Shown piece after piece: positions 1 through 22,308 of a stretch of 64,000 nucleotides of DNA. Position 1 is the first letter of the stretch. Each line of letters starts with the position of its first letter. A program made the position numbers and the translations under genes. The notes beneath the pieces are model-generated. The model worked only from the letters and a program-made list of their open reading frames with translations, was not told the origin of the DNA and searched no databases. Source of the stretch: an uncultured Rikenella sp. (GTDB lineage Bacteria > Bacteroidota > Bacteroidia > Bacteroidales > VadinHA17); the NCBI GenBank assembly GCA_964470815.1, contig CAYYEH010000004.1, forward strand, positions 16,442 to 80,441, written 5' to 3'.

Positions 1-716
1 TTTGAGAAGTAGGTTTCAGCAGCGCATGAGACAGCGTAGAGTCCGGGGGCAGGGACGAGTTTTGTAACGTCAGTCACGGGGATACGTATCATGGGCACCA
101 GGGTGGTGATACCCGGGTCTTCCTTCAGGGCATTGCCGATGACAAGGTAAAAGTGGTCGAGGTAGGCATTTGCCCGCTGGATGTATCCTTCTGTCAGCGC
201 CTGCCTGATACGTGTTGAGCTTACTGTCTCATTCTGCACCTCCTGCATGGGTATCTCCTCGGCCTCGAAACCGTATTTTTCCCTCCACTCCCACAGAGTA
301 CGATAGTCACCCTGCTGGTTGAACCCGAAATGGTGGTTATGGCCAACAACAATCACCCTGGCTCCAAGGATGCCGCAGAGGATATCACGTACGAATTCCT
401 CGCTTGTAATCCGGGCAAAGTCACGCGTAAACTCAATGATTATTACATTTTCAAGTCCGGCCTTCCGGAGGAGTTCGATCTTCTCTTCCTGTGAACATAT
501 CAGCTTCAGACCTTTGCCTGCGGTCTCCGGGTAGAGCACCACCCTCGGATGGGGATGAAAAGTGATCAGTACGCTCTCCCCTCCGTGTTCCGATGCCAGT
601 TTCTTCAGCCTGTTGATGATGGTCCGGTGACCGATGTGAACCCCGTCGAAGGTACCGGTCGTAACTACCGGGGCATTTATAACCGAGGCTTCCTGAAAGC
701 TCCTGAAGATCCTCAT
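1..716 (-). CDS. ribF: Bifunctional riboflavin kinase / FMN adenylyltransferase (RibF), C-terminus cut by window edge
   Basis: Absent from the ORF track because it is open at the window edge. My translation of the minus strand from ATG 716..714 reads MRIFRSFQEASVINAPVVTTGTFDGVHIGHRTIINRLKKLA...VIVVGHNHHFGF...VSSTRIRQAL, which carries the FAD-synthetase motifs GxFDGxHxGH and SSTxIR. Its ATG overlaps the rex stop (ATGA). Confidence 0.85.
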   Translation of the reverse strand, partial: MRIFRSFQEASVINAPVVTTGTFDGVHIGHRTIINRLKKLASEHGGESVLITFHPHPRVVLYPETAGKGLKLICSQEEKIELLRKAGLENVIIIEFTRDFARITSEEFVRDILCGILGARVIVVGHNHHFGFNQQGDYRTLWEWREKYGFEAEEIPMQEVQNETVSSTRIRQALTEGYIQRANAYLDHFYLVIGNALKEDPGITTLVPMIRIPVTDVTKLVPAPGLYAVSCAAETYFS

Positions 717-1351
717 TGTCCGGCCGGCTGCTTGTTTTCCTTGACATAGTAAGCTACCTTCTCAATGGAGGTGATCATGTCAAACTCTTCGAGGTAGACG
801 TTGTCAGGCACATTAAGGGGTACAGTGGTGAAATTCATGATACCCTTGATACCGTTGCTTACAAGCATTGATGAAGTGGATACAGCCTGGTCTGCGGGTA
901 CAGCCAGTACGGCGACGACAATATCAAGTTCTTCCCTGAGCTTCCTCATCTGGCTGATATTGTAGCACCGCACACCGGCAACAACTTTATCAACCTTCTG
1001 AGGATCAACGTCAAATGCTGCAACCACGTTCATATTGGTACGCCTGCCCATGAAATAGCCTGTGATGGCCCGGCCGAGGTTACCCATCCCGATGATTGCC
1101 ACATTGAGTCCTTTGGGAGCGTCAATTATGGAGCCGATGGTTTTGATCAATTCCCTTACATCATACCCTTTTCGCATGACGCTTCCGTAACCGATGAGCA
1201 TGAGATCACGCCTGACCTGAACGGCAGTGATATGCAGCATCGCCGCAAGCTCATGTGAGAAAACATAATTTCGGTTAGATGCCAGGGTGGTTATAAGTGC
1301 CCTTCTGTACTGGCTGAGGCGTTCAACTGTTTTTCCGGGTAGTGTTTTCAT
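713..1351 (-). CDS. rex: Redox-sensing transcriptional repressor Rex
   Basis: 212 aa. N-terminal winged helix (RLSQYRRAL, VFSHELAAMLHITAVQVRRDLMLIGYGS) and a Rossmann GxGxxG (IIGMGNLGRA), with overall Rex length and layout. There are 4-bp overlaps with both flanking genes. Confidence 0.9.
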   Translation of the reverse strand: MKTLPGKTVERLSQYRRALITTLASNRNYVFSHELAAMLHITAVQVRRDLMLIGYGSVMRKGYDVRELIKTIGSIIDAPKGLNVAIIGMGNLGRAITGYFMGRRTNMNVVAAFDVDPQKVDKVVAGVRCYNISQMRKLREELDIVVAVLAVPADQAVSTSSMLVSNGIKGIMNFTTVPLNVPDNVYLEEFDMITSIEKVAYYVKENKQPAGQ

Positions 1352-2496
1352 ATTCCTGTCTTTATATTGGAAACCTGAGACCTGGGGATGATCACGGTGA
1401 AGACTGATCCCCTGTCCGGGGCGCTCTCCACATTGATCACACCATGGTAGAGATCAACAACCTTTTTCACTATCGAGAGTCCCAGGCCGCTGCCGCTGAT
1501 GTTGCGGGTCTTGTCATTGCGGATCCTGGAGAACTCCTCGAAGAGCATATCACGTTCGTCACCGTTCATTCCAATCCCGGTGTCAGCCACCGAGACGGAG
1601 AATTCACTGTCATTGCAATCAACTGTTACCCTGACTGTTCCGCCGGGCTTGTTGTACTTCACGGCATTGGAGACGAGGTTATTGAGGATTATCTCGAAAT
1701 CGTTAGGGTCAGCCCAGATGGTTTCACATCCCCTGACCTCGGTGACAAACTGAATGTCCTTGTGTATTGCATAAGGGCTGACTGTTCCGACAGCCATGGA
1801 TACAAGCTCCTTCAGGTTCACATTCTGCATTTTCTCCATCTGCCGCTCAAAGTTCACCTTGGTGAAATCGAGCAGGTCCATTATCAGGTTCCTCATGCTC
1901 TCAATTCTCTGAAGTGATCTTTCTATTGCCGATGAATACTCATCCAGTGAATCGCCCATCTGCCTCTCCTGCATCATCCTGAGATAGCCCTCAATGGCAT
2001 TTAGGGGGGCCTTCAGTTCGTGAGACAGGACGGAAAGAAACTGGAACCTCACCTTCCTGCCCTCCACCTTGAGCTTGTGGGTTATCCTCCGAAGGTACTG
2101 CTGCTTTGTTATCTGTTCGATGGAGGCTTTCAGTTCCTGCGGGGTAAAAGGCTTGGGGATGAAGTCTATGGCTCCGTCATTGTGTGCCTTGACGGCAACA
2201 TCAATGGAAGCATAGGAGGTGATCATCGCCACGACAATGTCGTAGTTTTTCTTTCTCACATATTCTAGAACCTCAACACCCTGGATACCGGGAAGCTTAT
2301 TGTCAAGCAAAAGGATATCAGGCATCTCCCGGTCAATTATTTCTATTCCTTCCTCTCCTGTGGCAGCCTCCAGGATATTAAATGTATAATCCTCATCCAT
2401 AAACGGATAGGTGACATGAAAATTTCCCAGGATTCTTGATACACCTGATCGTATACCGGGTTCGTCATCAACTACAAGTACCTTCAGTTGTGCCAT
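1348..2496 (-). CDS. Hybrid response-regulator receiver / histidine kinase (REC-HisKA-HATPase_c)
   Basis: 382 aa. REC domain (VLVVDDEPGIR, LLLDNKLPG), H-box LSVLSHELKAPLNAI and ATPase boxes NLVSNAVKYN, DTGIGM, GSGLGLSIV. Confidence 0.9.
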   Translation of the reverse strand: MAQLKVLVVDDEPGIRSGVSRILGNFHVTYPFMDEDYTFNILEAATGEEGIEIIDREMPDILLLDNKLPGIQGVEVLEYVRKKNYDIVVAMITSYASIDVAVKAHNDGAIDFIPKPFTPQELKASIEQITKQQYLRRITHKLKVEGRKVRFQFLSVLSHELKAPLNAIEGYLRMMQERQMGDSLDEYSSAIERSLQRIESMRNLIMDLLDFTKVNFERQMEKMQNVNLKELVSMAVGTVSPYAIHKDIQFVTEVRGCETIWADPNDFEIILNNLVSNAVKYNKPGGTVRVTVDCNDSEFSVSVADTGIGMNGDERDMLFEEFSRIRNDKTRNISGSGLGLSIVKKVVDLYHGVINVESAPDRGSVFTVIIPRSQVSNIKTGI

Positions 2497-2498
2497 GG

Positions 2499-2891
2499 TC
2501 AGATCTTAAGAAGTTTCCTGATTTCCTGTTCAAGCTGCTCCGGCCTGACACCCTTTTCAAGGTAGAGGTCGGCCCTTATCCATTCACGGTCCTGTCCCCC
2601 GCTGAGTCCGAAGGTAATCCCGGTCTCGCGTGATACGGCAGTGGCGAGGATCACCGGGACTTCGGGGTATTTTCTCTTCAGCTTATAACAGAGTATGAAG
2701 CCGCTGTCATCGCTCTCCATCATAAGATCGAATACTGCTATATCAGGCTTCATCTTCGCTATCACCTGTTCAGCCTCAGCCTGGCTTTCAACGGCCATCA
2801 CCTCGAAACCTGCCTTGCGCAGGTAAAATGCCACCTGGAAAAGGTAATCGGGGTCATCGTCAGCAAGCAGGATTGTATAAATTTTACTCAT
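2499..2891 (-). CDS. Stand-alone response regulator receiver (CheY-like, no output domain)
   Basis: 130 aa, single REC domain (ILLADDDPD, AVFDLMM, VPVILATA). It lies 2 bp upstream of the hybrid kinase gene. Confidence 0.9.
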   Translation of the reverse strand: MSKIYTILLADDDPDYLFQVAFYLRKAGFEVMAVESQAEAEQVIAKMKPDIAVFDLMMESDDSGFILCYKLKRKYPEVPVILATAVSRETGITFGLSGGQDREWIRADLYLEKGVRPEQLEQEIRKLLKI

Positions 2892-2934: not shown

Positions 2935-4899
2935 TTATTCAGGTCTTCTGGGCAAAATTATCCTGAACGTTGTTCCGGTTGGCCCTTTGGCAGGATCACT
3001 GTTTGTTTCAACTGTAATCTGCCCCTTGTGCATCTTGACGATGCCGTAGGTTGTGGCCAGACCCAGACCTGTACCCTTACCGAGCACCTTGGTGGTAAAG
3101 AAGGGTTCAAATATCTTGGGTTTATCCTCATCCTTTATTCCGCTGCCGGTATCGGAGACGATGAATACAACGTCGCTGGGAGTGTCCTCAAGGGTGACTG
3201 TCAGCGTGCCTCCCTCAGGCATTGCATCAATTGCATTCCTGAAGAGGTTTGTAAGCACCTGCGTCATCTGCTCGGAGTCGATGGAGGCATCCGGGCTGGT
3301 GGTACGGTCTTCGATGACTGCTTTCACGTTTTCCGGGAAGACCACTCCGGCCACGCTGTTCTCTGTCAGTTTCCTGATATCAATGAACTGGTGGTTGACC
3401 TGATTCTTGCGGGCAAAGTTGAGCAGCCCGGCAACTATCTTCTTACATCGTGCAGCCTGTTCCACGATGAGCTGCAGGTCCTCACGCACAGGATCTTCCG
3501 GTTTGCATTCATCAAGCAGTATGTTGCTGTACATGATTACCACCCCGAGGGGATTATTGAGTTCATGGGCAATACCGGCAGAGAGCTGACCCATGTGCGC
3601 AAGCTTCTCCGATTGCTTGAGAGCGTTCTGCATGGTGGTGAGCTTGGCATTGGAAAGTGCAAGGTCCTGCACTGACCTGTGCAGCTTTTCTATCGTATAG
3701 GGAAGGCACATCTCCTCCTCGGCCAAGCCCTTGATGATGGCTATGGCATGGTCATAGCATGTGTCATACCCGCATGCCCCGCAGTTAAGGTGATCCTTTT
3801 CAGTCACCTTGCCCATTGAAGCAAGAACTTTTCTGACCTCCTCATCCTCTGCCATCATCTGTCGCTTGTCCTCTTCGCGGAAACGGACAGTCAGATCAAG
3901 CCTGTCATAAATCTCCAGGTTGTTCCGCCACTCCTCCATATCGAGGGATGACATTTTATACTGGGCATATGAGCTCACGAGAGCCCTGCGGTTGTACTGT
4001 TTGCCACCCTTGCTCATGCCGGGACCCATTATGCATCCCTCGCAGCACAGCAGTTCAAGGTGTTGGCCGCCGATCATTCCCTGTTCAAATTCCTTGATGG
4101 CTTCCTGGAAGTCAATTCTTCCTTCGGCGGCTATTATGTTTCCTGTAATGGCATCATCATTGACACCGGCAGTCTGAAGCAGCCCGCGTGTCACCGGGAA
4201 TATGGCTCCCCTACCTCCCAGCGGCGGATCGAATTCGGAAGGCTCAGCCGTATCAGCCGTGATGGATGAAGACTCCAGCATCTCTCGCAGTTCTATGAAG
4301 GTGAGGGCTGCATCAACCTCAGAATTTTCAGCCTTCTTGGCAACACAGGGACCGATGAAGACCACCGAAAGGTCATTACCATGCTTCTTTCTCATCACCC
4401 TGGTCATTGCAACCATGGGTGATACCACAGGAATGAGCTCCGGTGTCAGGCCGGGATGGTAAAACCTGATAAAGGATACTATGGCCGGACAGTCTGATGA
4501 AATATAATTTTTTGCCCCGGCATCACTGATCATGTTACGGTAGCGGTGAGCCACGAGGTCAGCCCCGAATGAGACCTCGGCCACATAGTCAAACCCGAGG
4601 GCCCTGATCATACCGACAACCTTGCGGTGATCGGTCACGTCATGGAACTCGGCGGGGAAGCTCGGGGCTATCAGCGCCGCCTTTCTGCCGGGCCTGGCAA
4701 TAAGCTTCCTTACCAGGTCAACAGTATTGACAAATACCTTTGCACCCTGGCTGCATACCTTGGTGCAGTTACCGCAGGCAATGCATCTCTCGGTGATGAC
4801 CTCTGCCTGGCCTCCTACTATCCGGATGGCGCGGGCAGGGCACTCCCTGACGCAGGTATAGCATGTACGGCAAAGCTCTTTTATTGTATATACAAGCAT
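2935..4899 (-). CDS. Sensory [FeFe]-hydrogenase-like protein fused to a histidine kinase (2x[4Fe-4S] + H-cluster domain + CxxCGYxxC Fe-S motif + HisKA + HATPase_c)
   Basis: 654 aa. Ferredoxin motifs [12 protein letters not shown] and [12 protein letters not shown]-domain motifs [21 protein letters not shown] and [13 protein letters not shown]. An [15 protein letters not shown] motif, the H-box [13 protein letters not shown] and G-boxes SDTGSGI and GTGLGLATT. Confidence 0.85.
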
Positions 4900-4911
4900 C
4901 TCCTGTTCAGT

Positions 4912-6627
4912 TTAAAGCAATACGTCCCTCCTGCTGAAGTGAGTATGAAACAGCTTTTTATCAGCAAGCTCGGAACACTGTTCAAATACCCTGCCATAGA
5001 GGTCGGCGACGGAAGCTGACTGTTCAGGTCCGCGGACAGCTTCCTGGTCATCAGTCTGCCAGATGAATTTTACTCTCTGCCTCACAGCCTCCCTTGACCC
5101 GGCAGGGAGCATCCCGCCACCGTTGACACAGCCTCCGGGGCAGGTCATTACCTCGACGAGGTCATAATGCACCCCGCTTTCAATCATCTGCCTCACTTTG
5201 GACAGGCCTTTCAGCCCGTCAACCACCGCCACTTTATAACTCTCTCCTCCGGCTGTGACCGTCGTCTCGCGGAAGGTTCCGGTGTTGCGCAATTTCTTGA
5301 CTGCAGGCCTGTCAGCCTCCTTTTCACCCTTTCTGGCTGCCAGTGACCGGAGAACAGATTCAGTAATGCCCCCGGCAGATTCTGCCAGGAAGGAGGCAGA
5401 ACTGCGAAGCGCCATCGGCTCGTCAGCAGGCTCCGGATCAATATTCGTGATATCAATGCCATAGAGTACGATAAGCCGTGCCAGTTCCCTCACTGTCAAT
5501 ACGGTATCAATATCACTGATCCCCTTGCGGGTCATGCTGTCACGACGTGCCTCAAACTTCATTGCAGTGCACGGGGTAACGGATACAGTATAAACCCTTG
5601 GTTTATCATCACTTACTGGCACAACCGATTTGATTATTGAGCCTGATATCTGTTGCGGCGTTTTAAGGGTTGAGAGCATCGGCAGGAGTTCGGGTGTGAA
5701 CTGCTCACAGTATTTGACCCAGGCCGGGCATGCCGAGACTATCAGCGGTTTCCCGGCAGGATTTCCTTTTGTGCTGATGATGGCGTCAGTAAGTTCTGTT
5801 ATCAGAATATCAGTTCCTGTTCCCGAGAGGAAAATTTTATCGAAGCCGGTCTTCCTGAGTGCAGCATTGAGAAGCCTGTCGAAGTCGCGGTTGTATTTTA
5901 TGCCCAGTTCCTCTGCCAGGGCATACGGCACCAACGGGGAATACTGGATAACCCTTGTAACATCATGTCGGCTGAGCTGTTCCTGCACCTCTGCAAGATA
6001 ATGCTTTTCATGAAGGGCTCCGGTTGGGCACACCAGAACGCACTGGCCGCAGTGTATGCAGCTCGAGAAGTTGAAATCGCGGTCCATGGCCGGACCCACA
6101 TGTGTATAGCGCCCCCTGCCAATGAAGTCTATTGATGTGGCTGTGACCACCTCCTCGCAGATCCTAAGACAGCGGCCGCAGAGGATGCACTTTGAAAGCT
6201 CGCGGACAATGGCCGGGCTCGACTGGTCACGGCGTGGCTTGATCTTGCTTCCGCGTATGCGCCGCTCCCTCACCTGCATCTCATCTGACAGGCGCTGCAA
6301 TTCGCAGTCAAGATTGCGGTCACAGTACAGGCAGTCATCAGGATGGTTGGAAAGAAGGAGCTCGACGATTGTCTTGCGGGCCCTGATGACGCGGGGTGAA
6401 TGGGTCTTTATTTTCATCCACTCTTCAACAGGTGCCGAGCAGGCAGTGACAAGCCTGTCACGCCCCTCAACCTCCACCACGCACATACGACAGGCACCAG
6501 TAGGGGTGAACTCCGCCATACGGCAGAGTGTGGGAATGATTATGCCATTGCGGTTCAGGGCGGAGAGTATGGTCTCTCCCTTTTCGGCCCTGATGCTCTT
6601 GTTATTGACTTCGATGGTGAACTGCAT
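4912..6627 (-). CDS. hydA: [FeFe]-hydrogenase large subunit HydA-like (M3 architecture: [2Fe-2S] + His-ligated [4Fe-4S] + 2x[4Fe-4S] + H-domain), with atypical H-cluster pocket
   Basis: 571 aa. Cluster motifs are C35/C46/C49/C63, HPDDCLYCDRNLDC, CILCGRCLRIC and CIHCGQCVLVCP. H-domain motifs are VSACPAW (canonical TSCCPxW), TPCTAMKFE (canonical MPCxxKxxE) and EVMTCPGGCVNGGG. A small-subunit-like C-terminal tail is present. Tightly linked to hydB and hydC. Confidence 0.85.
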   Translation of the reverse strand: MQFTIEVNNKSIRAEKGETILSALNRNGIIIPTLCRMAEFTPTGACRMCVVEVEGRDRLVTACSAPVEEWMKIKTHSPRVIRARKTIVELLLSNHPDDCLYCDRNLDCELQRLSDEMQVRERRIRGSKIKPRRDQSSPAIVRELSKCILCGRCLRICEEVVTATSIDFIGRGRYTHVGPAMDRDFNFSSCIHCGQCVLVCPTGALHEKHYLAEVQEQLSRHDVTRVIQYSPLVPYALAEELGIKYNRDFDRLLNAALRKTGFDKIFLSGTGTDILITELTDAIISTKGNPAGKPLIVSACPAWVKYCEQFTPELLPMLSTLKTPQQISGSIIKSVVPVSDDKPRVYTVSVTPCTAMKFEARRDSMTRKGISDIDTVLTVRELARLIVLYGIDITNIDPEPADEPMALRSSASFLAESAGGITESVLRSLAARKGEKEADRPAVKKLRNTGTFRETTVTAGGESYKVAVVDGLKGLSKVRQMIESGVHYDLVEVMTCPGGCVNGGGMLPAGSREAVRQRVKFIWQTDDQEAVRGPEQSASVADLYGRVFEQCSELADKKLFHTHFSRRDVLL

Positions 6628-6630
6628 AGC

Positions 6631-8580
6631 TTATTTTACTGTAACCGCACTGAACTTGCAAACATCATAGCATACCCCACACCCGATGCATTTGTCCTCA
6701 ACAATAAAGAAGGGCTGCAGCCTTGTGCCGTATATGGCATTTACCGGGCATTTGGCGGCACAGACAGTGCAACCCGTGCACTTCTCAACATCGATGCTGA
6801 AGGTCCTCAGTCCGCGACAGACATTGGCACGGCATCGCCTGTCAAAGATATGCTCCTCAAACTCCTCGCGGTAGTTGGCAAGGGCGCTGATAAATGGATT
6901 TGGGGCTGTCTGCCCCAGGCCGCAGAGCGAAGTATCCTTCATCACCGAAGCGATGGTCTCAAGCTGCATCACCCCCTTGAACCTCTCAAGGGTTGCATTG
7001 GAGTCTTCACTATGAGGCTTCCGGACAACGTTTTCAAGAATCTCCTGCATCCGGCCCGTTCCCTCCCGGCAGGGGATGCATTTGCCACAGCTCTCCCGGT
7101 GGATGAACTCCATGTAATACCTCACGAAATCGACAAGACAGGTGGTCTCATCAATGATGATTAGCCCGCCCGAGCCCATGGCAATACCGTTTGCCCTGAG
7201 AACGTCATAATCTACAGGCAGATCGAGGTTCTTCTCTGTTATAAAGGTACCTGACGGACCTCCAATCTGGAGAGTCTTGAATGCCTTGCCGTCCCTGATA
7301 CCGTCAGCTATCCCCTCGGCAATGGTTCTGAAGGTAGTTCCCATTTCAACCTCGATAAGGCCTGTGAATCGCCCCCTTCCTCCGAGGGAGAAGAGTTTGG
7401 TGCCTTTGCTCCCTTCCGTACCCATCGATCTGAACCACTCCGGTCCGTGAGACATAATAAGTGGAACATTCATAAGGGTTTCCACGTTGTTTATTACGGT
7501 AGGCTTGCCGTACAGGCCGCTGGTGGTAGGATACGGCGGTTTGAGCTCAGGCATTCCCCGCTTGCCCTCCAGGGAGGCAATCAGTGCTGTCTCCTCTCCG
7601 CAGACGAATGCTCCGGCCTCTTCCCGTACTATTATCTCGAGGTTGAATCCGCTTGACAGGATATTGTGGCCGGTGATGCCGAATTCAGCGGCGGCGGCGA
7701 GTGCCTTTCGTAAACGTGCCAGCGGGTGGGGTGACCCGGTTTTCAGGTAGATGACTGCAGTGGAGGCCCCTATTGCGTATGAGGCAATGCATATACCTTC
7801 TATCAGCCTGTGCGGGTCACCCTCCATCACTGACCTGTCAGCGTATGATCCAGGATCGCTCTCCTTGGCATTGCAGATCAGGAACCTGTTGTCAGATGCC
7901 GAGTTGAGGGCGTACTTCCACTTCAGCCCGGTGTTGAAGCCGCCGCCGCTGCGACCACGCAGGCCGCTGCGCTCAACAATGTCACACACCTCTTCATGGG
8001 TATAGTTGCGAATTGTCTTCAGAAAGGCCCTGTATCCTCCCCGTGCTATATACTCCTCTATGCTTTCAGGGTCATAACAGCCGCAGTTTCCAAGAACCAC
8101 CCTCTTCTGCAGCCTGAAGAAGGGCACCTCCTCCATGAAGGGTATCTCATGCCAGGCCTCAAAGCCGTAACTGCCCGACTGTGCGACCAGGTCCTCCTCA
8201 GGCATATCATTGTGGAATACGCCGTTAAGAAGGGGCTCAATCTTGTCTTCAGTAATATTCCTGAAGATGAGTTTGTTCTTGCCGGGCAGATGAACACAAA
8301 CCAGGGGTTCAAATGCAGCAGGTCCGTGACAACCGGTCCGTACAACCTCACCCCTGATTCCCATCTCTTCCAGGTAAAGTTCTGCGGCAGCTGCGGTGAC
8401 GTTGGCTCCGGCAATTATTGCTGCGGACCCGGAAGCCACATAGATGACAGGTGCTGAGGGCTTGTCACGCCTTACTTCTGCAAGCCGCCTGGCTGTCTCA
8501 GAGGGCAGGGTGTCAGTGCCGTGCAGCAGCACCTCCCTGATAAGGAAATCTTTCAGGCCGTAGTCAGTAATCTTTTTCAT
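6631..8580 (-). CDS. hydB: NuoF-like flavoprotein subunit HydB of NAD(P)H-linked/bifurcating hydrogenase
   Basis: 649 aa. FMN/NADH motifs GRSGGGFNTGLKWK and GEETALIASLEGKRGMP. N3-type cluster motif ESCGKCIPCREG...CGLGQTAPNP. C-terminal 2x[4Fe-4S] motifs CTGCTVCAAKCP and CIGCGVCYDVC. Confidence 0.9.
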   Translation of the reverse strand: MKKITDYGLKDFLIREVLLHGTDTLPSETARRLAEVRRDKPSAPVIYVASGSAAIIAGANVTAAAAELYLEEMGIRGEVVRTGCHGPAAFEPLVCVHLPGKNKLIFRNITEDKIEPLLNGVFHNDMPEEDLVAQSGSYGFEAWHEIPFMEEVPFFRLQKRVVLGNCGCYDPESIEEYIARGGYRAFLKTIRNYTHEEVCDIVERSGLRGRSGGGFNTGLKWKYALNSASDNRFLICNAKESDPGSYADRSVMEGDPHRLIEGICIASYAIGASTAVIYLKTGSPHPLARLRKALAAAAEFGITGHNILSSGFNLEIIVREEAGAFVCGEETALIASLEGKRGMPELKPPYPTTSGLYGKPTVINNVETLMNVPLIMSHGPEWFRSMGTEGSKGTKLFSLGGRGRFTGLIEVEMGTTFRTIAEGIADGIRDGKAFKTLQIGGPSGTFITEKNLDLPVDYDVLRANGIAMGSGGLIIIDETTCLVDFVRYYMEFIHRESCGKCIPCREGTGRMQEILENVVRKPHSEDSNATLERFKGVMQLETIASVMKDTSLCGLGQTAPNPFISALANYREEFEEHIFDRRCRANVCRGLRTFSIDVEKCTGCTVCAAKCPVNAIYGTRLQPFFIVEDKCIGCGVCYDVCKFSAVTVK

Positions 8581-9044
8581 TTGAGGTCAGCCAGTGCTTT
8601 AAGTTTGGAAATAAGTTCGGGTATATCCTCGGGGCGCAGATGAGTATGGTATGTGTCACCGGTACAGACTACCGGCCCTTCATTGCACCCTCCCTGGCAG
8701 GCTGTAAGCTCATAGCTGAACCTGCCGTCACGGGTGGTCTGCCCCGGCTCAATGCCAAGTACCTCCTTTACAGCAGCAACCACCGATGCCGAACCGTTTA
8801 TGAAACAGGTGGTGCCGTTGCAAATGCGCATATGCATCCTGCCAGCCGGAATAAACCTGAAACGGTCATAAAAAGTTGCCAGTCCGAAAATCTTGGTGGT
8901 TGACATCTGCAGAAAACTGCCGATCTTCACGATAGCAGTCTCGGAAAGATACCCTTCGGCCTCCTGGACATCCTGCAGGATAGGTATCAGGTTTTCATGG
9001 CCTCCCTCCCTGTACCGGCTCAGAATATCATCTATCTTACTCAT
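8577..9044 (-). CDS. hydC: NuoE-like thioredoxin-fold [2Fe-2S] subunit HydC
   Basis: 155 aa. Motifs CNGTTCFINGS and CQGGCNEGP (Cx4C...Cx3C). 4-bp overlap with hydB. Confidence 0.88.
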   Translation of the reverse strand: MSKIDDILSRYREGGHENLIPILQDVQEAEGYLSETAIVKIGSFLQMSTTKIFGLATFYDRFRFIPAGRMHMRICNGTTCFINGSASVVAAVKEVLGIEPGQTTRDGRFSYELTACQGGCNEGPVVCTGDTYHTHLRPEDIPELISKLKALADLK

Positions 9045-9155: not shown

Positions 9156-9458
9156 GTGCAGGCGTTGGAAATTGTTGTACTTTTGAGTGAATATGAACTA
9201 AACTTCAGGCTGTTGGGACAATCGTACAACATCGAGATATGTCTTGGAAGCTCCTGTTTTTCAAGAGGTAACAGGGAGGTAGTACAGGTCATAAGGGATT
9301 ATCTCCGGAAAAATCACCTAGATGACAAGGTGGTGCTCAGGGGAGCACGCTGCATGAACCGTTGCAGCGAGGGTCCCTTTATTATTATCAATGGAAGGAC
9401 TTTTACCGGTACCGGTATCCAGGATATTGAGAAGCTCCTGGAGAAGGAGCTGGTATAG
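9156..9458 (+). CDS. Small thioredoxin-like [2Fe-2S] ferredoxin (NuoE/HydC-like)
   Basis: About 100 aa. Motifs ICLGSSCFSRGN and GARCMNRCSEGP (Cx4C...Cx3C). The start is uncertain: GTG at 9156, or in-frame TTG/CTG codons up to about 9213, with no in-frame ATG near the 5' end. Confidence 0.7.
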   Translation: MQALEIVVLLSEYELNFRLLGQSYNIEICLGSSCFSRGNREVVQVIRDYLRKNHLDDKVVLRGARCMNRCSEGPFIIINGRTFTGTGIQDIEKLLEKELV

Positions 9459-9487: not shown

Positions 9488-11365
9488 ATGAAGATACCGG
9501 ATCAGGTAATATATATAAATGAGGACAAGTGTCGCAACTCCTATTCATGTGTGAGGGTATGCCCTGTCAATGCGTTGGAGGTGAGGCCCGAGAGGGCGCA
9601 TCCCGTAATTATTGCTGACAGGTGCATCGGTTGCGGCCTCTGTTTCCTGTCGTGTTCACCCCGTGCCATTGAGTTCAGGGACTCGCGCACCCAGGTGAAG
9701 CAGATACTGCAGTCGGGCCGTCGTACGGCAGCACTGATAGCACCCAGCATAGCGTCAGAGTTTGATGACATAACCGACTACCGCAAGTTTGTGGGGATGA
9801 TCCGAAGCCTTGGATTCACATATGTGCATGAGGTATCATTTGGTGTTGACCTGGTAGCCTATGCCTACAAGAAGCTCTTCGAGGAGTCGAGCGGCAAGTA
9901 CTACATTACCTCCAACTGCCCATCCATAGTAGAGATGATCGAGAAGTACCATCCGCACCTGGTGCCTAACCTCGCACCACTGGTTTCACCGATGGTAGCG
10001 ACGGCGATGGTGACGCGTGACCTTTACGGTGATGATGTGGCAAACGTATTCATCGGCCCCTGCATTGACATCAAGGCTGAAGCAACCCTTTACCAGGAAA
10101 AGAACCTCGTGGAGGCTGTCCTGACTTTCATTGAGATCAGGCAGCTCTTCGAAGAGTACGAGATACAGGAGAAGACCGTAAAGATGGCCGAGTTTGATCC
10201 TCCCTTCGGCAACTGGGGGGCCCTTTACCCTTATCCTGCAGGCATACTGCAGGCTGCAGGCATCAAGCGTGATCTTGTCTCCAGCCAGGTAATAACTGCC
10301 TCCGGCTCCGAGGATGTGAAGGAAGCAATCAACGATTTCGACCATCATATTGATACAATAAGGCACCACTTCAATCTCTTCTTCTGTCCGGGATGCATGC
10401 TCGGTCCGGGAATGATCAGGCATGACGAACGCTTCAGACGCCGTTCTCTGGTCAAACAGTACGCCGAGAAGCGTGTTGAGACCCTCGACAAGGAGCAATG
10501 GAAAAAGGATATGGACCGGTGGTCGGGGCTTGACCTGACGCACAGCTTCAGGGCCAATGATCAGCGGATCCCGGAACCGCCACAGGAGGCAGTAATGGAG
10601 GTTATGAAGATAATTGGCAAGGATAACCGCTCCGAAGAGCTGAACTGCAATGCCTGCGGCTATGGGTCATGCCGGGAGTTTGCTGCAACGGTGGCCAAGG
10701 GCCTGGCTGTTCCGGAGATGTGCCACACCTACAACCTGCGGAACAAGCAGGAATATATTGAGACCCTGAGGCAGACAAACAAAAAACTATCTGAGACCAA
10801 AAAGGCCCTGAAGGAGTCGGAAGAGCAGGCCATGCGTGAAAAGGATGCAGCACAGGATGCATCGGACACCATGAACAGCATGCTCAACAAGCTGCCCAAC
10901 GGAGTGGTTATAGTCGACAATGAGCTGAAAATACTGCAGTCAAACGCACGGTTCCTTGAAATAATCGGAGAGGATGCAAAGGCTATCGCGGAGATAATAC
11001 CAGGGCTGAGGGGCGCCGATCTTAAGACACTTCTTCCTTTCAATGTCTACAATATTTTCTCCTTTGTTCTGCGCGAAAACGAATCTGTCATCAGCCGCGA
11101 CGTTCAGCTTGAAGACCGGATGTTCAACATATCCATCTTCCCAATCAGGCAGAACAGGATAGCGGGGGCGGTGATACGTGACCTTTTCTCACCTGAGGTA
11201 CAGCGTGAAGAGGTTATAAACAGGGTATCCGACGTCATCGATAAAAACCTTGAAATGGTTCAGAAAATAGGTTTCCTGCTGGGTGAAGGGGCTTCAGAGA
11301 CGGAGAAGATGCTGAATTCCATCGTAGAATCATTCCGACAGAAGAAGAATGCACCCGGAAAGTAG
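9488..11365 (+). CDS. Sensory [FeFe]-hydrogenase-like protein HydS type (2x[4Fe-4S] + H-cluster domain + CxxCGYxxC + PAS)
   Basis: 625 aa. Ferredoxin motifs CRNSYSCVRVCP and CIGCGLCFLSC. H-domain motifs YITSNCPSIV, FIGPCIDIKAE and FFCPGCMLGPGM. An LNCNACGYGSCREFA motif and a C-terminal PAS-like segment (LPNGVVIVDNELKILQSNARFLEIIG). Confidence 0.85.
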   Translation: MKIPDQVIYINEDKCRNSYSCVRVCPVNALEVRPERAHPVIIADRCIGCGLCFLSCSPRAIEFRDSRTQVKQILQSGRRTAALIAPSIASEFDDITDYRKFVGMIRSLGFTYVHEVSFGVDLVAYAYKKLFEESSGKYYITSNCPSIVEMIEKYHPHLVPNLAPLVSPMVATAMVTRDLYGDDVANVFIGPCIDIKAEATLYQEKNLVEAVLTFIEIRQLFEEYEIQEKTVKMAEFDPPFGNWGALYPYPAGILQAAGIKRDLVSSQVITASGSEDVKEAINDFDHHIDTIRHHFNLFFCPGCMLGPGMIRHDERFRRRSLVKQYAEKRVETLDKEQWKKDMDRWSGLDLTHSFRANDQRIPEPPQEAVMEVMKIIGKDNRSEELNCNACGYGSCREFAATVAKGLAVPEMCHTYNLRNKQEYIETLRQTNKKLSETKKALKESEEQAMREKDAAQDASDTMNSMLNKLPNGVVIVDNELKILQSNARFLEIIGEDAKAIAEIIPGLRGADLKTLLPFNVYNIFSFVLRENESVISRDVQLEDRMFNISIFPIRQNRIAGAVIRDLFSPEVQREEVINRVSDVIDKNLEMVQKIGFLLGEGASETEKMLNSIVESFRQKKNAPGK

Positions 11366-12563
11366 CACCACCGAAATCATGGAGAGGCAGTTCTTCATTG
11401 AGGTCAACAGTCAGCAGCGCAATCACCACGGAGAGCGTATCTGCGGAGATGTGTTCCTGTCAGAAAACGTGCGCGAGGAAAACCGCATCATCACGGTGTT
11501 GTCTGACGGTATGGGACACGGTGTAAAGGCCAATATCCTGGCTACTCTTACCTCAACCATGTCACTGAATTTCACCCGTGAGCATAAGGAACCTGACCGT
11601 ATTGCCGAGATCATCATGAATACCCTCCCTGTATGCTCGGAGAGGAAGATCAGCTATGCCACCTTTTCAATTGTTGACATTGAAAGTGACGGGAGGGCAA
11701 ACATCCTTGAATATGATAATCCGCGCTGTATCATCCTCAGGGGGAATCAGCCATTTGAACCCGACTGGAGGGATGTTGTGCTTGACAAGGGGCGGAATGC
11801 CGGCAAGCGGCTGCATAAGTGCACCTTCTACCCTTCCAAGGAAGACCGTATAATCCTCCTCTCCGACGGTGTTGCGCAGAGCGGCATGGGTTCAGCTGCA
11901 TGGCCACTGGGATGGGAACGTGACAATGTACAGTTGTATGCCGCCTCGCTTGTTGCCGGTGAACCATCCATCTCTGCCTCCACCCTGGCGGCCAAGATAG
12001 TGAACATGGCTTACAAACATGACAATTACGAGGCTAAGGATGACATCTCATGTGCTGTACTCTACTTCAGGGAGCCGCGCAAGCTGCTGATATGCACCGG
12101 CCCTCCCTATGAGGAGGAAAAGGATAAGGAACTGGCTGAAAAAGTGACCGGATACAAGGGAAAAGTGATACTGTGCGGCGGCACCACGGCCGATATTGTA
12201 GCCCGTGAACTGAACCGCAAGATAGTTGACGAACTGATATTCGAAGACCCTGACCTTCCTCCGGAGAGCTTCATGGAGGGGGTTGACCTGGTCACCGAGG
12301 GAATCCTTACCCTGCAGAAGGTCAATGAGCTGGTCAAGGGTTACAAAAACAGTGTCAAGCTGGGAAAAGGACCGGCAGACAAAATTGTCAAACTGATAAT
12401 GGAAAGCGACGAGATCAACTTCCTTGTCGGTACCCGGATAAATGTGGCTCACCAGGATCCTGCACTGCCGGTTGACCTCGAAATACGGCGGACAGTGGTT
12501 AAGCGCATTGCCCGCATCCTTGAGGACAAGTGGCTGAAGCAGGTCTCCGTTGATTATATCTGA
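11349..12563 (+). CDS. SpoIIE/PP2C-family serine phosphatase with about 170-aa C-terminal domain of unknown function
   Basis: 404 aa. PP2C/SpoIIE signature ERICGDVFL...VLSDGMGHGVKANILA...LLSDGV. An alternative start is ATG 11379 (MERQFF), 13 nt after the upstream stop. Confidence 0.8.
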   Translation: MHPESSTTEIMERQFFIEVNSQQRNHHGERICGDVFLSENVREENRIITVLSDGMGHGVKANILATLTSTMSLNFTREHKEPDRIAEIIMNTLPVCSERKISYATFSIVDIESDGRANILEYDNPRCIILRGNQPFEPDWRDVVLDKGRNAGKRLHKCTFYPSKEDRIILLSDGVAQSGMGSAAWPLGWERDNVQLYAASLVAGEPSISASTLAAKIVNMAYKHDNYEAKDDISCAVLYFREPRKLLICTGPPYEEEKDKELAEKVTGYKGKVILCGGTTADIVARELNRKIVDELIFEDPDLPPESFMEGVDLVTEGILTLQKVNELVKGYKNSVKLGKGPADKIVKLIMESDEINFLVGTRINVAHQDPALPVDLEIRRTVVKRIARILEDKWLKQVSVDYI

Positions 12564-19590: not shown

Positions 19591-22308
19591 ATGATCAGTT
19601 TGGCCATGCACATTAAACGACTGTCTGTCAGTGCTATAATAGTTATTTCTTTCATTTCTGCGGCCTTTGCCGGTGACGTTACGGTTACCGGCACGGTATC
19701 AGACCGCGAAGGTTCGCCCATAATGAATGCAAGAGTCTCTTTCTTTCTGAATTCCAGGGAGTTCAGGGTCTCAACCGGAACTGACGGAAGGTATGCGGTT
19801 AAGATCACGGGATCATACAGTGATGTAGCGGGCGAATTCGTTGCAGGCACTCCGTACCCCAACCCCTTTGACAACAGCGTAAATATCCCATTTATTATCA
19901 ACACTTCCGGAGATGTGATGCTCACCATTTACAACCTGGCCGGGGAGAAGGTAAGGGTTATGGTTTTTCCGGACGTGACAGCGGGAAGTTACAATGTTGT
20001 ATGGGACGGTTGCGGGCAGAACAATGCGCCAATGAGTGCCGGGCTGTACATCTATGCCATAGCTTTCCGGGGCAGGTCCTACAGCGGCAGGCTGGTCAAG
20101 GCTTCCTCAGACGGGTCAATTTCCTCCGGAAGCGGGCTGGAGCCGGTGATGTTGCCGCCCGGTGAACCCATCCCTGAGCCTTCGCTTCGTTTTCCTGTAA
20201 CATCAGAAGTAACTGCCCGGGGCTTTTATCCGGTGAGGCTTACAGACATAACCCTTGCTGCTGACACGGTTATAGACTTCGTTCTTACGACAAGCCGCTC
20301 CATGCCTTTTACCGTGGCCGGAGATTATATTGCCAGGTTTATCGGTAATGATTATGAGCCTATGATTCTCAAGGGGGTTAATCTCGGCTCGTCGCCTCCG
20401 GGTTACTTTCCGGGCGAGATAGCATATGCCATCACAGCCGAGACATATAAGAGATGGATTGAACGGATGGCAGAAGCAGGCTTCAATACCGTCAGGGTTT
20501 ACACTCTTCATCCGCCGGTCTTCTATGAGAAGCTGGCCGAGCACAACCAGCGTCATCCCGACAGGCCCCTTCTTCTCTTCCAGGGTATATGGCTTGAGGA
20601 GGTTGAGGACGGAACGGATCCCTTAAGCTATGATCTCATCAGGCGCCGGCAGGCCTTCAGCTCGGAGATAGCTGAGGTGATAGACTGTATCCATGGAAAT
20701 GGTGACATTGCATTCAGGTACGGCAAATCTTACGGTATCTATAAAACCGATGTCTCGCAATGGACAGCAGGTTATATCATTGGCCGTGAGGTTGCTCCGC
20801 AGGAGATAGATTCCACCAATAAGTTCCACCCGGGAACCATTTCCTATTCCGGCACCCGGTTCAGCATCAGCGGCAGGAGTGCTTCGGAGGCATTCATTAC
20901 CGAAATGCTTGACAGGGTGGTTGTCTTTGAGGAGAACGAGTATTCATCCAGCAGGCCTGTAAGTTTTTCAAGCTGGCCGACCCTTGACCCTCTGGAACAC
21001 CCTACCGAGATATACACTGACGAGGATGTGGCATCATTTGATATCACACGGATAACACGCAACGGAGGGCCGGGGCTGTTTGCCAGCTACCATGCCTATC
21101 CCTATTATCCGAACTTCATCAGCCAGGAGCCGTCATACCTGGGATACAATGACAGCCAGGGTCCCAACAGTTATCTGGGTTACCTGACGGCCATGAAAAA
21201 TCATTACTCGGATATGCCACTGGTGATAGCCGAGTTTGGCGTACCTTCAAGCTGGGGCAGCGCACACCAGTCATACAGTTCAATGCACCATGGCGGATAC
21301 TCCGAGATACAGCAGGGGGAAAAGAACATGCGAATGATGCATAACATGCTTGACGCCGGTTGCGCCGGAGGATTTATGTTTGCCTGGATGGACGAATGGT
21401 TCAAACGGACCTGGATAGTGCTTTACCAGGAGGCCTATGGGGTGGATGCCGGGGGAGAAACAATTCCAACACGACAGCTGTGGCATAACGAGACCTCTCC
21501 GGAACAGTGCTTCGGCCTGCTCGCATTCGAGCAGAAGAACAGGCCTGACTTCGTCCCTTACCTCACCGATAACCCCGCCGGTCCGCTGAATTCAGTCAGG
21601 GCCACTCATGACGAAGGATTCCTCTACCTTGAGATAAACACTGCAGCCGACCTGGTTCCGACGGATGAATTCATGGTGGCATTTGACACCTACCGGGGCA
21701 ACACAGGTGAATCAACCCTGCCGGGCGGTATTACCACAGGCAACAGGGCAGAGTTTTTGCTTACCTTCACCCTTGAGGATGACACGGCACTGCATCATGT
21801 GACAGAGGCATACGATATGAACGGTCTCACGGTGCGGTTCAATCTCACTGAACCGGAGCAGCAGTTCAGGAGCACAAACACCGACGGGGCACCCTGGAAG
21901 GTGATGAGATGGACCAATGACGGCTTTGAGCTTACCTACCATGACATAGGCAAGGTTCCCGTTGAGCATTCTTCAACCTTCACCGAAGGCAACAGGGCAT
22001 CTGTAGCCTGGAACGGCAGGAAAATAACCATCAGGCTTCCATGGACCATGCTCCATTTCTTTGATCCCACACAGATGACTGTCAATGACGGGGCTGTATC
22101 ATATGACGGTGGTTATAACTTCGAGATTATCACAGCCCAGTCTGACGGTATTGCCGTCTCAGTATGGCACAAAGGGGTGGTCACCAATGCCATGAACAGG
22201 TACAGCTGGCCCAGGTGGCTCCTGGTTCCGCAGACCATAGAAAGGGAAAAAGCCTCGCTTCATATCATTGAGGAGGGATTGAGAGCGATACCTGATCTGG
22301 TTGATTAA
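19591..22308 (+). CDS. Secreted multidomain protein: CarboxypepD_reg-like + FlgD-Ig/T9SS-CTD-like beta-sandwich + putative clan GH-A (beta/alpha)8 glycoside hydrolase + C-terminal beta-rich region
   Basis: 905 aa with a signal peptide. VTVTGTVSDREGSPIMNARV is CarboxypepD_reg-like. PYPNPFDNSVNIPF...LTIYNLAGEKV...AGSYNVVWDG...GLYIY is FlgD-Ig/Por_Secre_tail-like (nt 19852..20103). The TIM-barrel-like core has GVNLG, FNTVRVYT, YIIGREV (candidate acid/base) and VIAEFGVPSSWG (candidate nucleophile). The GH assignment rests on motif resemblance only. Confidence 0.55.
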   Translation: MISLAMHIKRLSVSAIIVISFISAAFAGDVTVTGTVSDREGSPIMNARVSFFLNSREFRVSTGTDGRYAVKITGSYSDVAGEFVAGTPYPNPFDNSVNIPFIINTSGDVMLTIYNLAGEKVRVMVFPDVTAGSYNVVWDGCGQNNAPMSAGLYIYAIAFRGRSYSGRLVKASSDGSISSGSGLEPVMLPPGEPIPEPSLRFPVTSEVTARGFYPVRLTDITLAADTVIDFVLTTSRSMPFTVAGDYIARFIGNDYEPMILKGVNLGSSPPGYFPGEIAYAITAETYKRWIERMAEAGFNTVRVYTLHPPVFYEKLAEHNQRHPDRPLLLFQGIWLEEVEDGTDPLSYDLIRRRQAFSSEIAEVIDCIHGNGDIAFRYGKSYGIYKTDVSQWTAGYIIGREVAPQEIDSTNKFHPGTISYSGTRFSISGRSASEAFITEMLDRVVVFEENEYSSSRPVSFSSWPTLDPLEHPTEIYTDEDVASFDITRITRNGGPGLFASYHAYPYYPNFISQEPSYLGYNDSQGPNSYLGYLTAMKNHYSDMPLVIAEFGVPSSWGSAHQSYSSMHHGGYSEIQQGEKNMRMMHNMLDAGCAGGFMFAWMDEWFKRTWIVLYQEAYGVDAGGETIPTRQLWHNETSPEQCFGLLAFEQKNRPDFVPYLTDNPAGPLNSVRATHDEGFLYLEINTAADLVPTDEFMVAFDTYRGNTGESTLPGGITTGNRAEFLLTFTLEDDTALHHVTEAYDMNGLTVRFNLTEPEQQFRSTNTDGAPWKVMRWTNDGFELTYHDIGKVPVEHSSTFTEGNRASVAWNGRKITIRLPWTMLHFFDPTQMTVNDGAVSYDGGYNFEIITAQSDGIAVSVWHKGVVTNAMNRYSWPRWLLVPQTIEREKASLHIIEEGLRAIPDLVD

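Follow-up and report, generated by a model that had tools for sequence, protein, structure and literature searches.

A Bacteroidales HydABC lineage with a predicted sensory-like, Lys358-less H-cluster pocket in a conserved, putatively H2- and redox-sensing gene module

A 64,000-nucleotide stretch of an uncultured Rikenella sp. genome (GenBank assembly GCA_964470815.1, contig CAYYEH010000004.1, positions 16,442 to 80,441; the window in what follows) encodes a HydABC-type complex whose catalytic subunit, HydA, lacks the relay cysteine, the proton-pathway glutamate and the distal-cyanide lysine of [FeFe] hydrogenases (C299, E279 and K358 in the numbering of the CpI enzyme). Judged by its sequence, this HydA belongs to a large, undescribed, Bacteroidales-specific group within the HydABC-type [FeFe] hydrogenases, with a sensory-like pocket that has lost Lys358 and carries Glu418, a HydB partner lacking the N-terminal [2Fe-2S] cluster B5, and a conserved module of putative H2- and redox-sensing genes around it. 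The reading that we tentatively favour, giving it somewhat less than even weight, is that HydA is a genuine hydrogenase, though slow or biased, whose proton path has been rewired, with Glu418 (Glu416 in the window protein) as the candidate relay.

Remodelling of the H-cluster pocket

HydA has the M3 architecture. Pfam finds a Fer2_4 domain, a His-ligated NADH-G [4Fe-4S] domain, two ferredoxin-type [4Fe-4S] domains, Fe_hyd_lg_C and a small-subunit-like tail, the H-domain matching PF02906 (E 1.7e-62) and the C-terminus PF02256. All 16 M3 accessory-cluster ligands are present (C35/46/49/63; H95/C99/102/108; C147/150/153/157; C190/193/196/200), as are the four cysteine ligands of the H-cluster (CpI C300, C355, C499 and C503). 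The best full-length match in the PDB is HydA1 of T. kivui (TkHydA1, E 3e-119), and Foldseek run on the HydA model returns TkHydA1 and CpI as top matches, both with a hydrogenase fold; in the AlphaFold2 (AF2) model the H-domain has pLDDT values (predicted local distance difference test) of 83-96, and residues 354-361 are helical. The CpI numbering was set by alignment with the crystallized variants E279A, E282A and C299A as landmarks. Because phmmer pairs the window segment plivSACPaw with pmftSCCPsw of T. kivui HydA1 and with pmftSACPgw of the engineered CpI variant C299A (6GLY), the register of the L1 motif is right and HydA residue 299 is the equivalent of CpI residue 299.

An earlier note on this DNA had read an alanine (GCA) at the position of Cys299 in LIVSACPAW, and both the translation of the open reading frame (ORF) and phmmer bear this out; the mis-registered motif that it had feared is not seen, the alignment to CpI and T. 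kivui HydA1 placing Ala at the relay position. The range 5719..5739 that it had given for the motif covers only VSACPAW; the 27-nt string quoted with it spans 5719..5745. The note was also right about the canonical L3 motif (EVMTCPGGCVNGGG, in which E492 = CpI E495, M494 = M497, C496 = C499 and C500 = C503), about the full set of accessory-cluster ligands and about the NuoF/NuoE-like partners, encoded by hydB and hydC directly upstream. Its L2 reading, TPCTAMKFE with Thr for Met, stands, while the lysine shift in the same motif (CpI K358 = Met356) had been overlooked. What it took for a single-residue anomaly in an otherwise canonical subunit is much broader: the Cys-Glu proton pathway, Lys358 and F417/G418 are all changed, and HydB has lost B5.

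The substitutions relative to CpI are listed here with the residue counts of the clade in brackets, which refer to 77 genome-derived HydA sequences with 64-98% identity to the window protein. The relay residue C299 is replaced by Ala (A 71, S 2, V 2; n=75). In the proton pathway E279 has become Leu (L 54, I 19, V 2, so that every member has L, I or V), E282 Ala and R286 Thr, positions 282 and 286 being variable and degenerate across the clade; S319 alone is kept. E279 is kept by 103 canonical sequences, and in a set of 149 representatives most sequences have E282 and R286. Around the [2Fe] subsite, M353 is replaced by Thr (T 72, S 5), F417 by Ala (74 of 77) and G418 by Glu (77 of 77, compared to Gly in 89% of canonical enzymes); further pocket changes are A230 to Ser (S 74), S232 to Leu and A272 to Thr (T 73). 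The lysine that holds the distal cyanide, K358, is Met356 in HydA (M 77/77), and the remaining lysine, Lys357, aligns with CpI K359 (K 77/77), followed by Glu359 at the position of E361. The canonical MPCxxKxxE is thus TPCxxxKxE in HydA, i.e. C-x3-K and not C-x2-K.

As far as the residues themselves tell, F417A would widen the cavity instead of filling it, and Met would be nearly isosteric with Lys. In the CpI structure C299, F417 and V423 are what we take to line the cavity above the distal Fe and the azadithiolate (adt) amine; given this layout, F417A may make room for the side chain of Glu418 to extend toward the amine.

The lysine deserves particular attention. Its counterpart in CrHydA1, K228, is extremely well conserved and fixes the distal cyanide and the rotated structure, and in model enzymes K358 is needed for cofactor insertion, being the last residue of the cationic maturation channel (PMC9516953). 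Ala at position 299, on the other hand, is typical of sensory HydS proteins, in which it occurs in about 43% of sequences, along with Thr, Ser or Gly in place of M353 (PMC10055695), in agreement with the link between Cys-to-Ala-type pockets and putative sensory hydrogenases drawn in the earlier note.

A Bacteroidales clade with a fixed pocket

A homologue search with the HydA H-domain as query returned 973 homologues, and a scan of one genome per species found at least 239 relatives matching the probe, of which the best 80 loci were analysed. All 80 come from metagenome-assembled genomes (MAGs) of uncultured organisms labelled Bacteroidales or Rikenellaceae, at 64-98% identity; the HydA of Bacteroidales bacterium Prado082 is 98% identical to that of the window. 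Cys is lacking at position 299 in 80 of the 80 loci and in about 100 metagenomic proteins. Every best match of the H-domain down to about 54% identity carries [ST]-[A/V/S/N]-C-P, and SCCP returns solely at 46% identity or less. The residues at positions 299, 358 and 418 are inherited together: about 100 metagenomic proteins could be scored, with the combinations A-M-E (78), V-M-E (8) and S-M-E (5), and the nearest outgroups (44-48% identity) have C-K-G.

Conserved in the clade are C300, C355, C499 and C503 (the four cluster ligands, in 75-77 of 77), M497 (77 of 77), S319, K322, P324, Q325 and E361. The cluster cysteines, M497, E495, S319, P324, K359, E361 and G421/G422 are invariant both in the clade and in 103 canonical sequences; Q325 is also invariant within the clade. 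An unbiased scan went through all H-domain columns in search of positions that are conserved both within the clade and within the 103 canonical sequences, with a different residue in each set. There are only 11 such positions (A230S, A272T, C299A, M353T, K358M, T381V, G412S, F417A, G418E, N545S and L568F), and seven of them (230, 272, 299, 353, 358, 417 and 418) are located at the [2Fe] pocket. Because of this concentration we read the divergence as a probable case of selected active-site remodelling; the pattern points to focused change under purifying selection, not to decay.

The lineage is sharply set apart. When 1.84 billion representatives were searched, its members scored 407, 320, 260 and 245 bits before a plateau at about 210. 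In a rough neighbor-joining (NJ) tree HydA falls among some 25 heterogeneous, non-canonical Group-A-like sequences, and the “ECMKFG” majority with the CpI, Tk, Aw and Tm enzymes is separate from this neighbourhood. We also looked at an apparent hydA insertion of about 800 nt in some 20 loci, with matches spanning 2.5 kb, and rejected it: the ORFs are about 572 aa long, and tblastn had joined the H-domain of the downstream hydS-HK gene to the match.

The earlier note had asked whether SACP might mark a well-known, fully active clade. The clade is large and absent from the searchable literature, in which we found no paper on SACPAW-type motifs or on natural C299/K358 variation in trimeric enzymes. 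The sole natural L1 variant discussed in the literature searched is C300S (TSCSP), reported in environmental hydA surveys. C300S occurs in 20 of 149 representatives, and the active bifurcating A. woodii HydA1 (7Q4V chain A) has TSCSPGW, with Ser at the cubane ligand C300.

As a separate observation, about 25 of 150 diverse representatives (P0135-P0272) form a heterogeneous set with non-canonical pockets, in which loss of C299, mostly to Ser, comes together with loss of K358 (A/G/R/E/N), M353 (T/S), E279 (Q/T/L) and F417. K359 is kept in 144 of 149 representatives, i.e. it is more conserved overall than K358.

HydB and HydC

The hydC stop overlaps the hydB start, and both genes lie directly upstream of hydA with their ends overlapping or abutting, which implies co-translation of the three. 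HydC has the four cysteines of its [2Fe-2S] cluster C1 (CNGTTC...CQGGC). HydB matches PF01512, PF10589 and two Fer4 domains; its best PDB match is the HydB of the A. mobile NiFe-HydABCSL complex (599 bits), and its B1 and B3/B4 cysteine motifs align to 7T2R_B. For the B2 [2Fe-2S] cluster, a single pairwise alignment shows the equivalents of A. mobile C438, H525, C531 and C536 to be conserved and that of C476 to be Val; in the B2 site of BfuB, C476 is often Thr (Schut et al. 2022). At the N-terminal B5 site, three of the four cysteines are replaced (S/A, A/S, C, A) in 76 of 76 clade HydBs, although the thioredoxin-like domain itself, comprising the N-terminal ~100 residues, is retained. HydB scores 436 against nuoF_fam, under the cut-off of 559.

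Throughout the clade, residues ~205-250 of HydB form fixed but non-canonical FMN/NAD(P)H loops. One loop reads GLRGRSGGG[FY]xTGLKW where the canonical form is GLRGRGGAGFPTGLKW, and the nucleotide loop reads CNAKESDPG in place of CNADEGDPG. The Asp-to-Lys change might shift nucleotide specificity.

The gene module, its sensors and its operator

Two divergent units make up the module (Table 1): HydC, HydB, HydA, HydS-HK, a receiver, a hybrid receiver-kinase and Rex are encoded in this order on one side, and a small [2Fe-2S] ORF, which heads the sensor unit directly upstream of hydS2, HydS2 and a PP2C phosphatase on the other. Among the best 80 loci, the arrangement is syntenic in essentially every one with enough flank. 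The intergenic region between the two units contains the perfect palindrome TTGTTATTTTATTAACAA. In 67 of 69 loci the 300 nt upstream of hydC contain TTGTTA-N6-TAACAA with one mismatch at most, mostly at 60-90 nt, compared to a background of 0.02 per 300 nt, and we regard the palindrome as a probable site for the Rex encoded in the same operon. The canonical Rex consensus TTGTGAA-N4-TTCACAA (up to three mismatches) is not enriched across the window, with 5 found and 3.2 expected; conservation is confined to the palindrome in front of hydC. The genes examined past 12.6 kb are unrelated to the module; a 905-aa ORF at 19591..22308 (+) has no Pfam match at E <= 1e-8.

The histidine-kinase-fused sensor, HydS-HK, combines a sensory-type H-domain with a PF04060 FeS domain, HisKA and HATPase_c. 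Its pocket has Asp at 299 (L1 SSDCP), as the earlier note had read, Gly at 353, the canonical Lys358 and Leu at 497, and [ST]SDCP is found in 72 of 72 loci. That Asp is the sole substitution to retain activity, as the note had said, is supported by PMC3485046; Asp is not listed among the common residues at 299 in sensory hydrogenases. HydS2, also with a sensory-type H-domain and PF04060, has Asn at 299 (L1 TSNCP), and its L3 motif, LFFCxGCMLGP, has neither E495 nor M497. In its L2 motif, GPCIDIKAE (clade GPCID[IS]KAE), the lysine is shifted by one residue as in HydA, with K358 replaced by I/S and K359 kept. Since HydS2 is otherwise sensor-like, this suggests that C-x3-K may be a workable register. 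No sensory-type HydS structure is detectable by sequence in the PDB.

Table 1. Features of the HydABC module and of HydA in the window (positions in the window; residue equivalents in CpI numbering)
Feature	Position	Strand	Remarks
Rex-type redox-sensing repressor	713..1351	-	212 aa; PF06971 + PF02629; last gene of the operon; syntenic 70/80
Hybrid receiver + HisKA + HATPase_c kinase	1348..2496	-	382 aa; syntenic 72/80
Response-regulator receiver, stand-alone	2499..2891	-	130 aa; PF00072; syntenic 72/80
hydS-HK	2935..4899	-	654 aa; syntenic 78/80
hydA	4912..6627	-	571 aa; M3-type [FeFe]-hydrogenase-like catalytic subunit, H-cluster pocket remodelled
L3 motif EVMTCPGGCVNGGG, residues 492-505	5113..5154	-	canonical; matches ExMxCxxGCxxG
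Ala415-Glu416 (= CpI F417-G418)	5380..5385	-	Glu, candidate replacement proton relay
L2 motif TPCTAMKFE, residues 351-359	5551..5577	-	Thr351 = CpI M353, Cys353 = C355
Met356 (= CpI K358)	5560..5562	-	
L1 motif LIVSACPAW, residues 295-303	5719..5745	-	ORF translation
Cys300 codon, in L1	5728..5730	-	cubane ligand
Ala299 codon GCA (= CpI Cys299)	5731..5733	-	
Former proton-pathway helix	5770..5793	-	alignment to CpI
Thr286 (= CpI R286)	5770..5772	-	
Ala282 (= CpI E282)	5782..5784	-	
Leu279 (= CpI E279)	5791..5793	-	
hydB	6631..8580	-	649 aa; NuoF-like FMN/NAD(P)H subunit, C-terminal 2x[4Fe-4S] domain; Pfam
hydC	8577..9044	-	155 aa; NuoE-like thioredoxin-type [2Fe-2S] subunit; PF01257 E 1.5e-42; syntenic 73/80
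Rex-box-like palindrome TTGTTATTTTATTAACAA	9111..9128	.	perfect; 67-84 nt upstream of hydC, divergent intergenic region
Small ORF, C-terminal half of a thioredoxin-like [2Fe-2S] ferredoxin	9156..9458	+	PF01257 E 6e-10; start codon uncertain
hydS2	9488..11365	+	625 aa; syntenic ~68-78/80
PP2C/SpoIIE-type phosphatase	11349..12563	+	PF07228; overlaps hydS2 stop (Hfs-like pairing); syntenic 68/80

Is HydA a hydrogenase?

A slow or biased enzyme, another proton path and a regulatory role, all raised in the earlier note, are live hypotheses. We favour a real hydrogenase because residues that are sensible only with a bound [2Fe] subsite are invariant, because the substitutions are specific, and because the operon is linked to H2 sensors and to Rex. 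In the mechanism that we propose, HydA would still bind the H-cluster, and the second coordination sphere of the [2Fe] subsite would have been rebuilt as a unit. The canonical relay, which runs from E282/R286 at the surface over S319, E279 and a water to C299 and the adt amine, is dismantled, and protons would reach the amine via the invariant Glu416 (CpI 418), with its side chain in the space left by F417A. In principle such a route would parallel that of Group D TamHydS, whose alternative pathway leads from Glu252 to Glu289, but it would start from another position. Hydrogen bonding to the cyanide could be taken over by Lys357 (CpI 359) or by the new hydroxyls of S230 and T272. Since the pocket of HydA resembles that of sensory hydrogenases, slow and/or biased turnover is to be expected. 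The natural Ala299 enzymes TmHydS and TamHydS, which are active through alternative pathways, offer a precedent by analogy. The complex might then serve as an H2 valve linked to NADH and ferredoxin, with Rex tying its expression to the NADH/NAD+ ratio and the two HydS sensors tying it to H2; the regulatory logic, with a Rex operator, a Rex gene and two H2-sensor-type proteins, fits a real H2/NADH enzyme.

A number of points weigh against such an activity. In CpI and HydA1, replacement of C299 by A/S or of E279 by A/Q leaves less than 1% activity (PMC6226526), and in site-saturation mutagenesis at Cys298 the activity was below detection for all substitutions but Asp (PMC3485046). In K228 variants of CrHydA1, H-cluster assembly was prevented (PMC9516953). 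That Glu416 lies close to the adt amine, and that Lys357 can reach the distal cyanide, are predictions, and in the AF2 helix 354-361 Met356 and Lys357 point about 100 degrees apart. The likeness of Glu418 to TamHydS E252 is conceptual only, because E252 does not align with position 418: the published mutagenic primers (SGG-E252-AFGT versus CpI TGG-V423-MEAA) map E252 to CpI V423 and E289 to CpI E495, and we therefore rejected the idea that the clade Glu418 is a homologue of E252. Both positions share the pocket-lining 417-423 segment, and E495 is retained in HydA. HydA scores below both NCBIfam cut-offs, with 332.5 versus 405.95 for TIGR02512 (group A) and 544.1 versus 765 for NF040763, the model for the NADH-dependent group A6 hydrogenase. 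As a consequence, NCBI names the clade members “(2Fe-2S)-binding protein”, “4Fe-4S binding protein” or “C-terminal domain-containing protein”, in comparison to “[FeFe] hydrogenase, group A” for canonical enzymes. The B5 cluster that HydB lacks is part of the six-cluster BfuBC core called invariant in bifurcating enzymes (Schut et al. 2022). Finally, neither hydEFG nor another hydrogenase is found among the window ORFs examined up to ~26.5 kb.

Could the complex then not be a hydrogenase at all? HydA would in that case carry the cubane only, without a [2Fe] subsite, and HydABC would be an H2-independent electron-transfer module, e.g. an NAD(P)H:ferredoxin oxidoreductase or an adaptor. We consider this main rival reading unlikely, although several of the above points are in its favour, namely the sub-threshold NCBIfam scores, the loss of B5, the loss of both C299 and E279, and Met in 77 of 77 sequences at the position needed for cofactor insertion. 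The exchanges K to M and G to E also shift the net charge near the site by -2. Moreover, A. mobile provides a HydA with [4Fe-4S] only (PMC9304861), and the window HydB is most similar to the HydB of that very enzyme; and the A3 subunit of B. thetaiotaomicron, whose membership in the clade is unproven, reached 0.22% of CrHydA1 activity, near the blank. An empty site is hard to reconcile, however, with the invariance of residues whose sole role is contact with the [2Fe] subsite (M497, Q325, P324, G421/G422 and E495) and with the retention of Lys359 and Glu361. The replacements are specific and invariant (Met, Glu, Ala, Thr), neither drifting nor cavity-filling, and in HydS2 the lysine is displaced in the same way, within an H-domain that is sensor-like in other respects. 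The operon has no alternative catalytic module, and dedicated H2 sensors flank the genes.

The complex could itself be sensory, a very slow HydA reporting H2 and, with HydBC, NADH/ferredoxin status to the two-component proteins without metabolic flux. Of the three pocket changes that are hallmarks of sensory enzymes, HydA indeed has two (Ala299 and Thr353), and synteny with the kinase-fused HydS, the receiver, the hybrid kinase and Rex is invariant. We nevertheless find this improbable: unlike HydS, HydA retains M497, and it has no PAS, kinase or other output domain but a full M3 electron-transfer architecture with flavin- and ferredoxin-domain partners. Its H-domain shares about 35% identity with Group A references, compared with 21-22% for the two HydS paralogues of its own locus, which already provide two dedicated sensors. 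Rex control, furthermore, is typical of metabolic NADH-consuming enzymes. An artefact or a decaying gene, be it an error of sequencing or assembly or a pseudogene of a single MAG, has next to no probability: the ORF is intact, a change from TGY to GCA needs at least two base changes, and the same signature recurs, with conserved synteny, in 77 independent assemblies and about 100 metagenomic proteins. The sequencing error that the earlier note had called unlikely is thereby excluded.

The slow or biased hydrogenase that we favour has a more far-reaching form, which we hold to be possible though rather doubtful. A functional H-cluster without Cys299 and Lys358, served by a path initiated at Glu418, would be a third, independent solution after the Cys of Groups A/B and the Glu252 of Group D, here in a B5-less HydABC. 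The complex would work as an NADH/ferredoxin-H2 valve that is kinetically gated or unidirectional, occurs widely in environmental Bacteroidales and is controlled directly by dual H2 sensors and by Rex.

Implications

C299, E279 and K358 are described as conserved strictly or to an extreme degree, and both proton transfer and H-cluster assembly as dependent on them; the mechanistic picture of [FeFe] hydrogenases and the rules for their design are built on these residues. A large natural lineage that has dropped all three together while the rest of the pocket stays constrained is a ready-made gain- or loss-of-function experiment: it should uncover either novel means of moving protons and of anchoring the [2Fe] subsite, or a class of non-hydrogenase HydABC complexes. 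HydDB-type metagenomic pipelines would score the clade genes as “group A3 H2 producers”, and the NCBI pipeline does not call them hydrogenases; with at least 239 species-level genomes matching the probe, this could affect estimates of how much H2 anoxic systems rich in Bacteroidales are able to produce. The fixed pairing with two HydS proteins, one with Asp299 and kinase-fused, the other with Asn299 and PP2C-linked, and with Rex would make the locus a compact system for studying H2-sensing control of a hydrogenase operon.

Comparison with known systems

The bifurcating HydABC enzymes of T. kivui (8A6T), T. maritima (7P5H) and A. woodii (7Q4V), HydDB Group A3, have the same hydC-hydB-hydA order. 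Common to them and the window complex are an M3 HydA with its accessory FeS ligands, a NuoF-like HydB with 2x[4Fe-4S] and a His/Cys B2 site, and a NuoE-like HydC. The window complex differs in its H-domain (~35% identity), in C299A/E279L/K358M/M353T/F417A/G418E, in failing the NCBIfam models, in a HydB without the N-terminal [2Fe-2S] cluster and in the CNAKESDPG loop. In the A. mobile NiFe-HydABCSL complex (7T2R), HydA lacks the H-cluster and has [4Fe-4S] alone at its H-site (PMC9304861). Its HydB, the closest solved relative of the window HydB, retains the N-terminal [2Fe-2S] cysteines, and the complex has NiFe large and small subunits as its catalytic module, none of which is encoded at the window locus.

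Another HydABC-type enzyme of the Bacteroidales is that of B. thetaiotaomicron, annotated as group A3; its catalytic subunit had 0.22 +/- 0.04% of CrHydA1 activity, near the blank (Welsh et al. 2025, PMC12578642). The same work gives an expression of about 3-5 transcripts per million (TPM) and is silent on the pocket residues. This HydA is not among the 120 best homologues nor in the best 80 genome loci, so that it probably has less than ~45% identity and lies outside the A-M-E clade. BT0124 carries a fallback name of the Prokaryotic Genome Annotation Pipeline (PGAP) like those of the clade members, and the link between this enzyme and the clade is only a lead. A 586-aa lineage (P0168/P0325) was considered as the Bacteroides A3 HydA and rejected, as it belongs to a different, chemotaxis-linked locus.

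One such locus (ENA ERZ28615549 scaffold_416, 4087..7761) is an unrelated, non-canonical HydAB-type locus with a 586-aa M3 HydA, in which positions 299 and 300 are both Ser, 358 is Glu and 497 is Lys. The gene adjoins one for a CheW-NuoE-like fusion, a gene for a methyl-accepting chemotaxis protein (MCP) is nearby, and the locus may encode a chemotaxis-linked hydrogenase-like complex.

The engineered CpI variants C299A, E279A and E279Q (6GLY, 5LA3, 6GM0; Duan et al. 2018) share with HydA the SACP context and the loss of the E279 carboxylate. They are single changes in a canonical scaffold, with less than 1% activity and Hhyd trapped (PMC6226526), whereas the changes in HydA are natural, multiple and co-inherited, and include the gained Glu at 418.

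TmHydS (Group C) and TamHydS (Group D) share with HydA the Ala in place of C299, a small or hydroxyl residue where CpI has M353, and the absence of the canonical proton pathway. TmHydS is far more active than CpI C299A, and the reversion A131C lowers its activity (PMC10055695). In HydS proteins the N-terminus is M2-type, the C-terminus carries FeS/PAS parts or a fused signalling domain, and M497 is replaced (Ser, Leu etc.). HydA, in contrast, keeps M497, has the M3 architecture with a small-subunit-like C-terminus and no signalling domain, and belongs to a HydABC complex.

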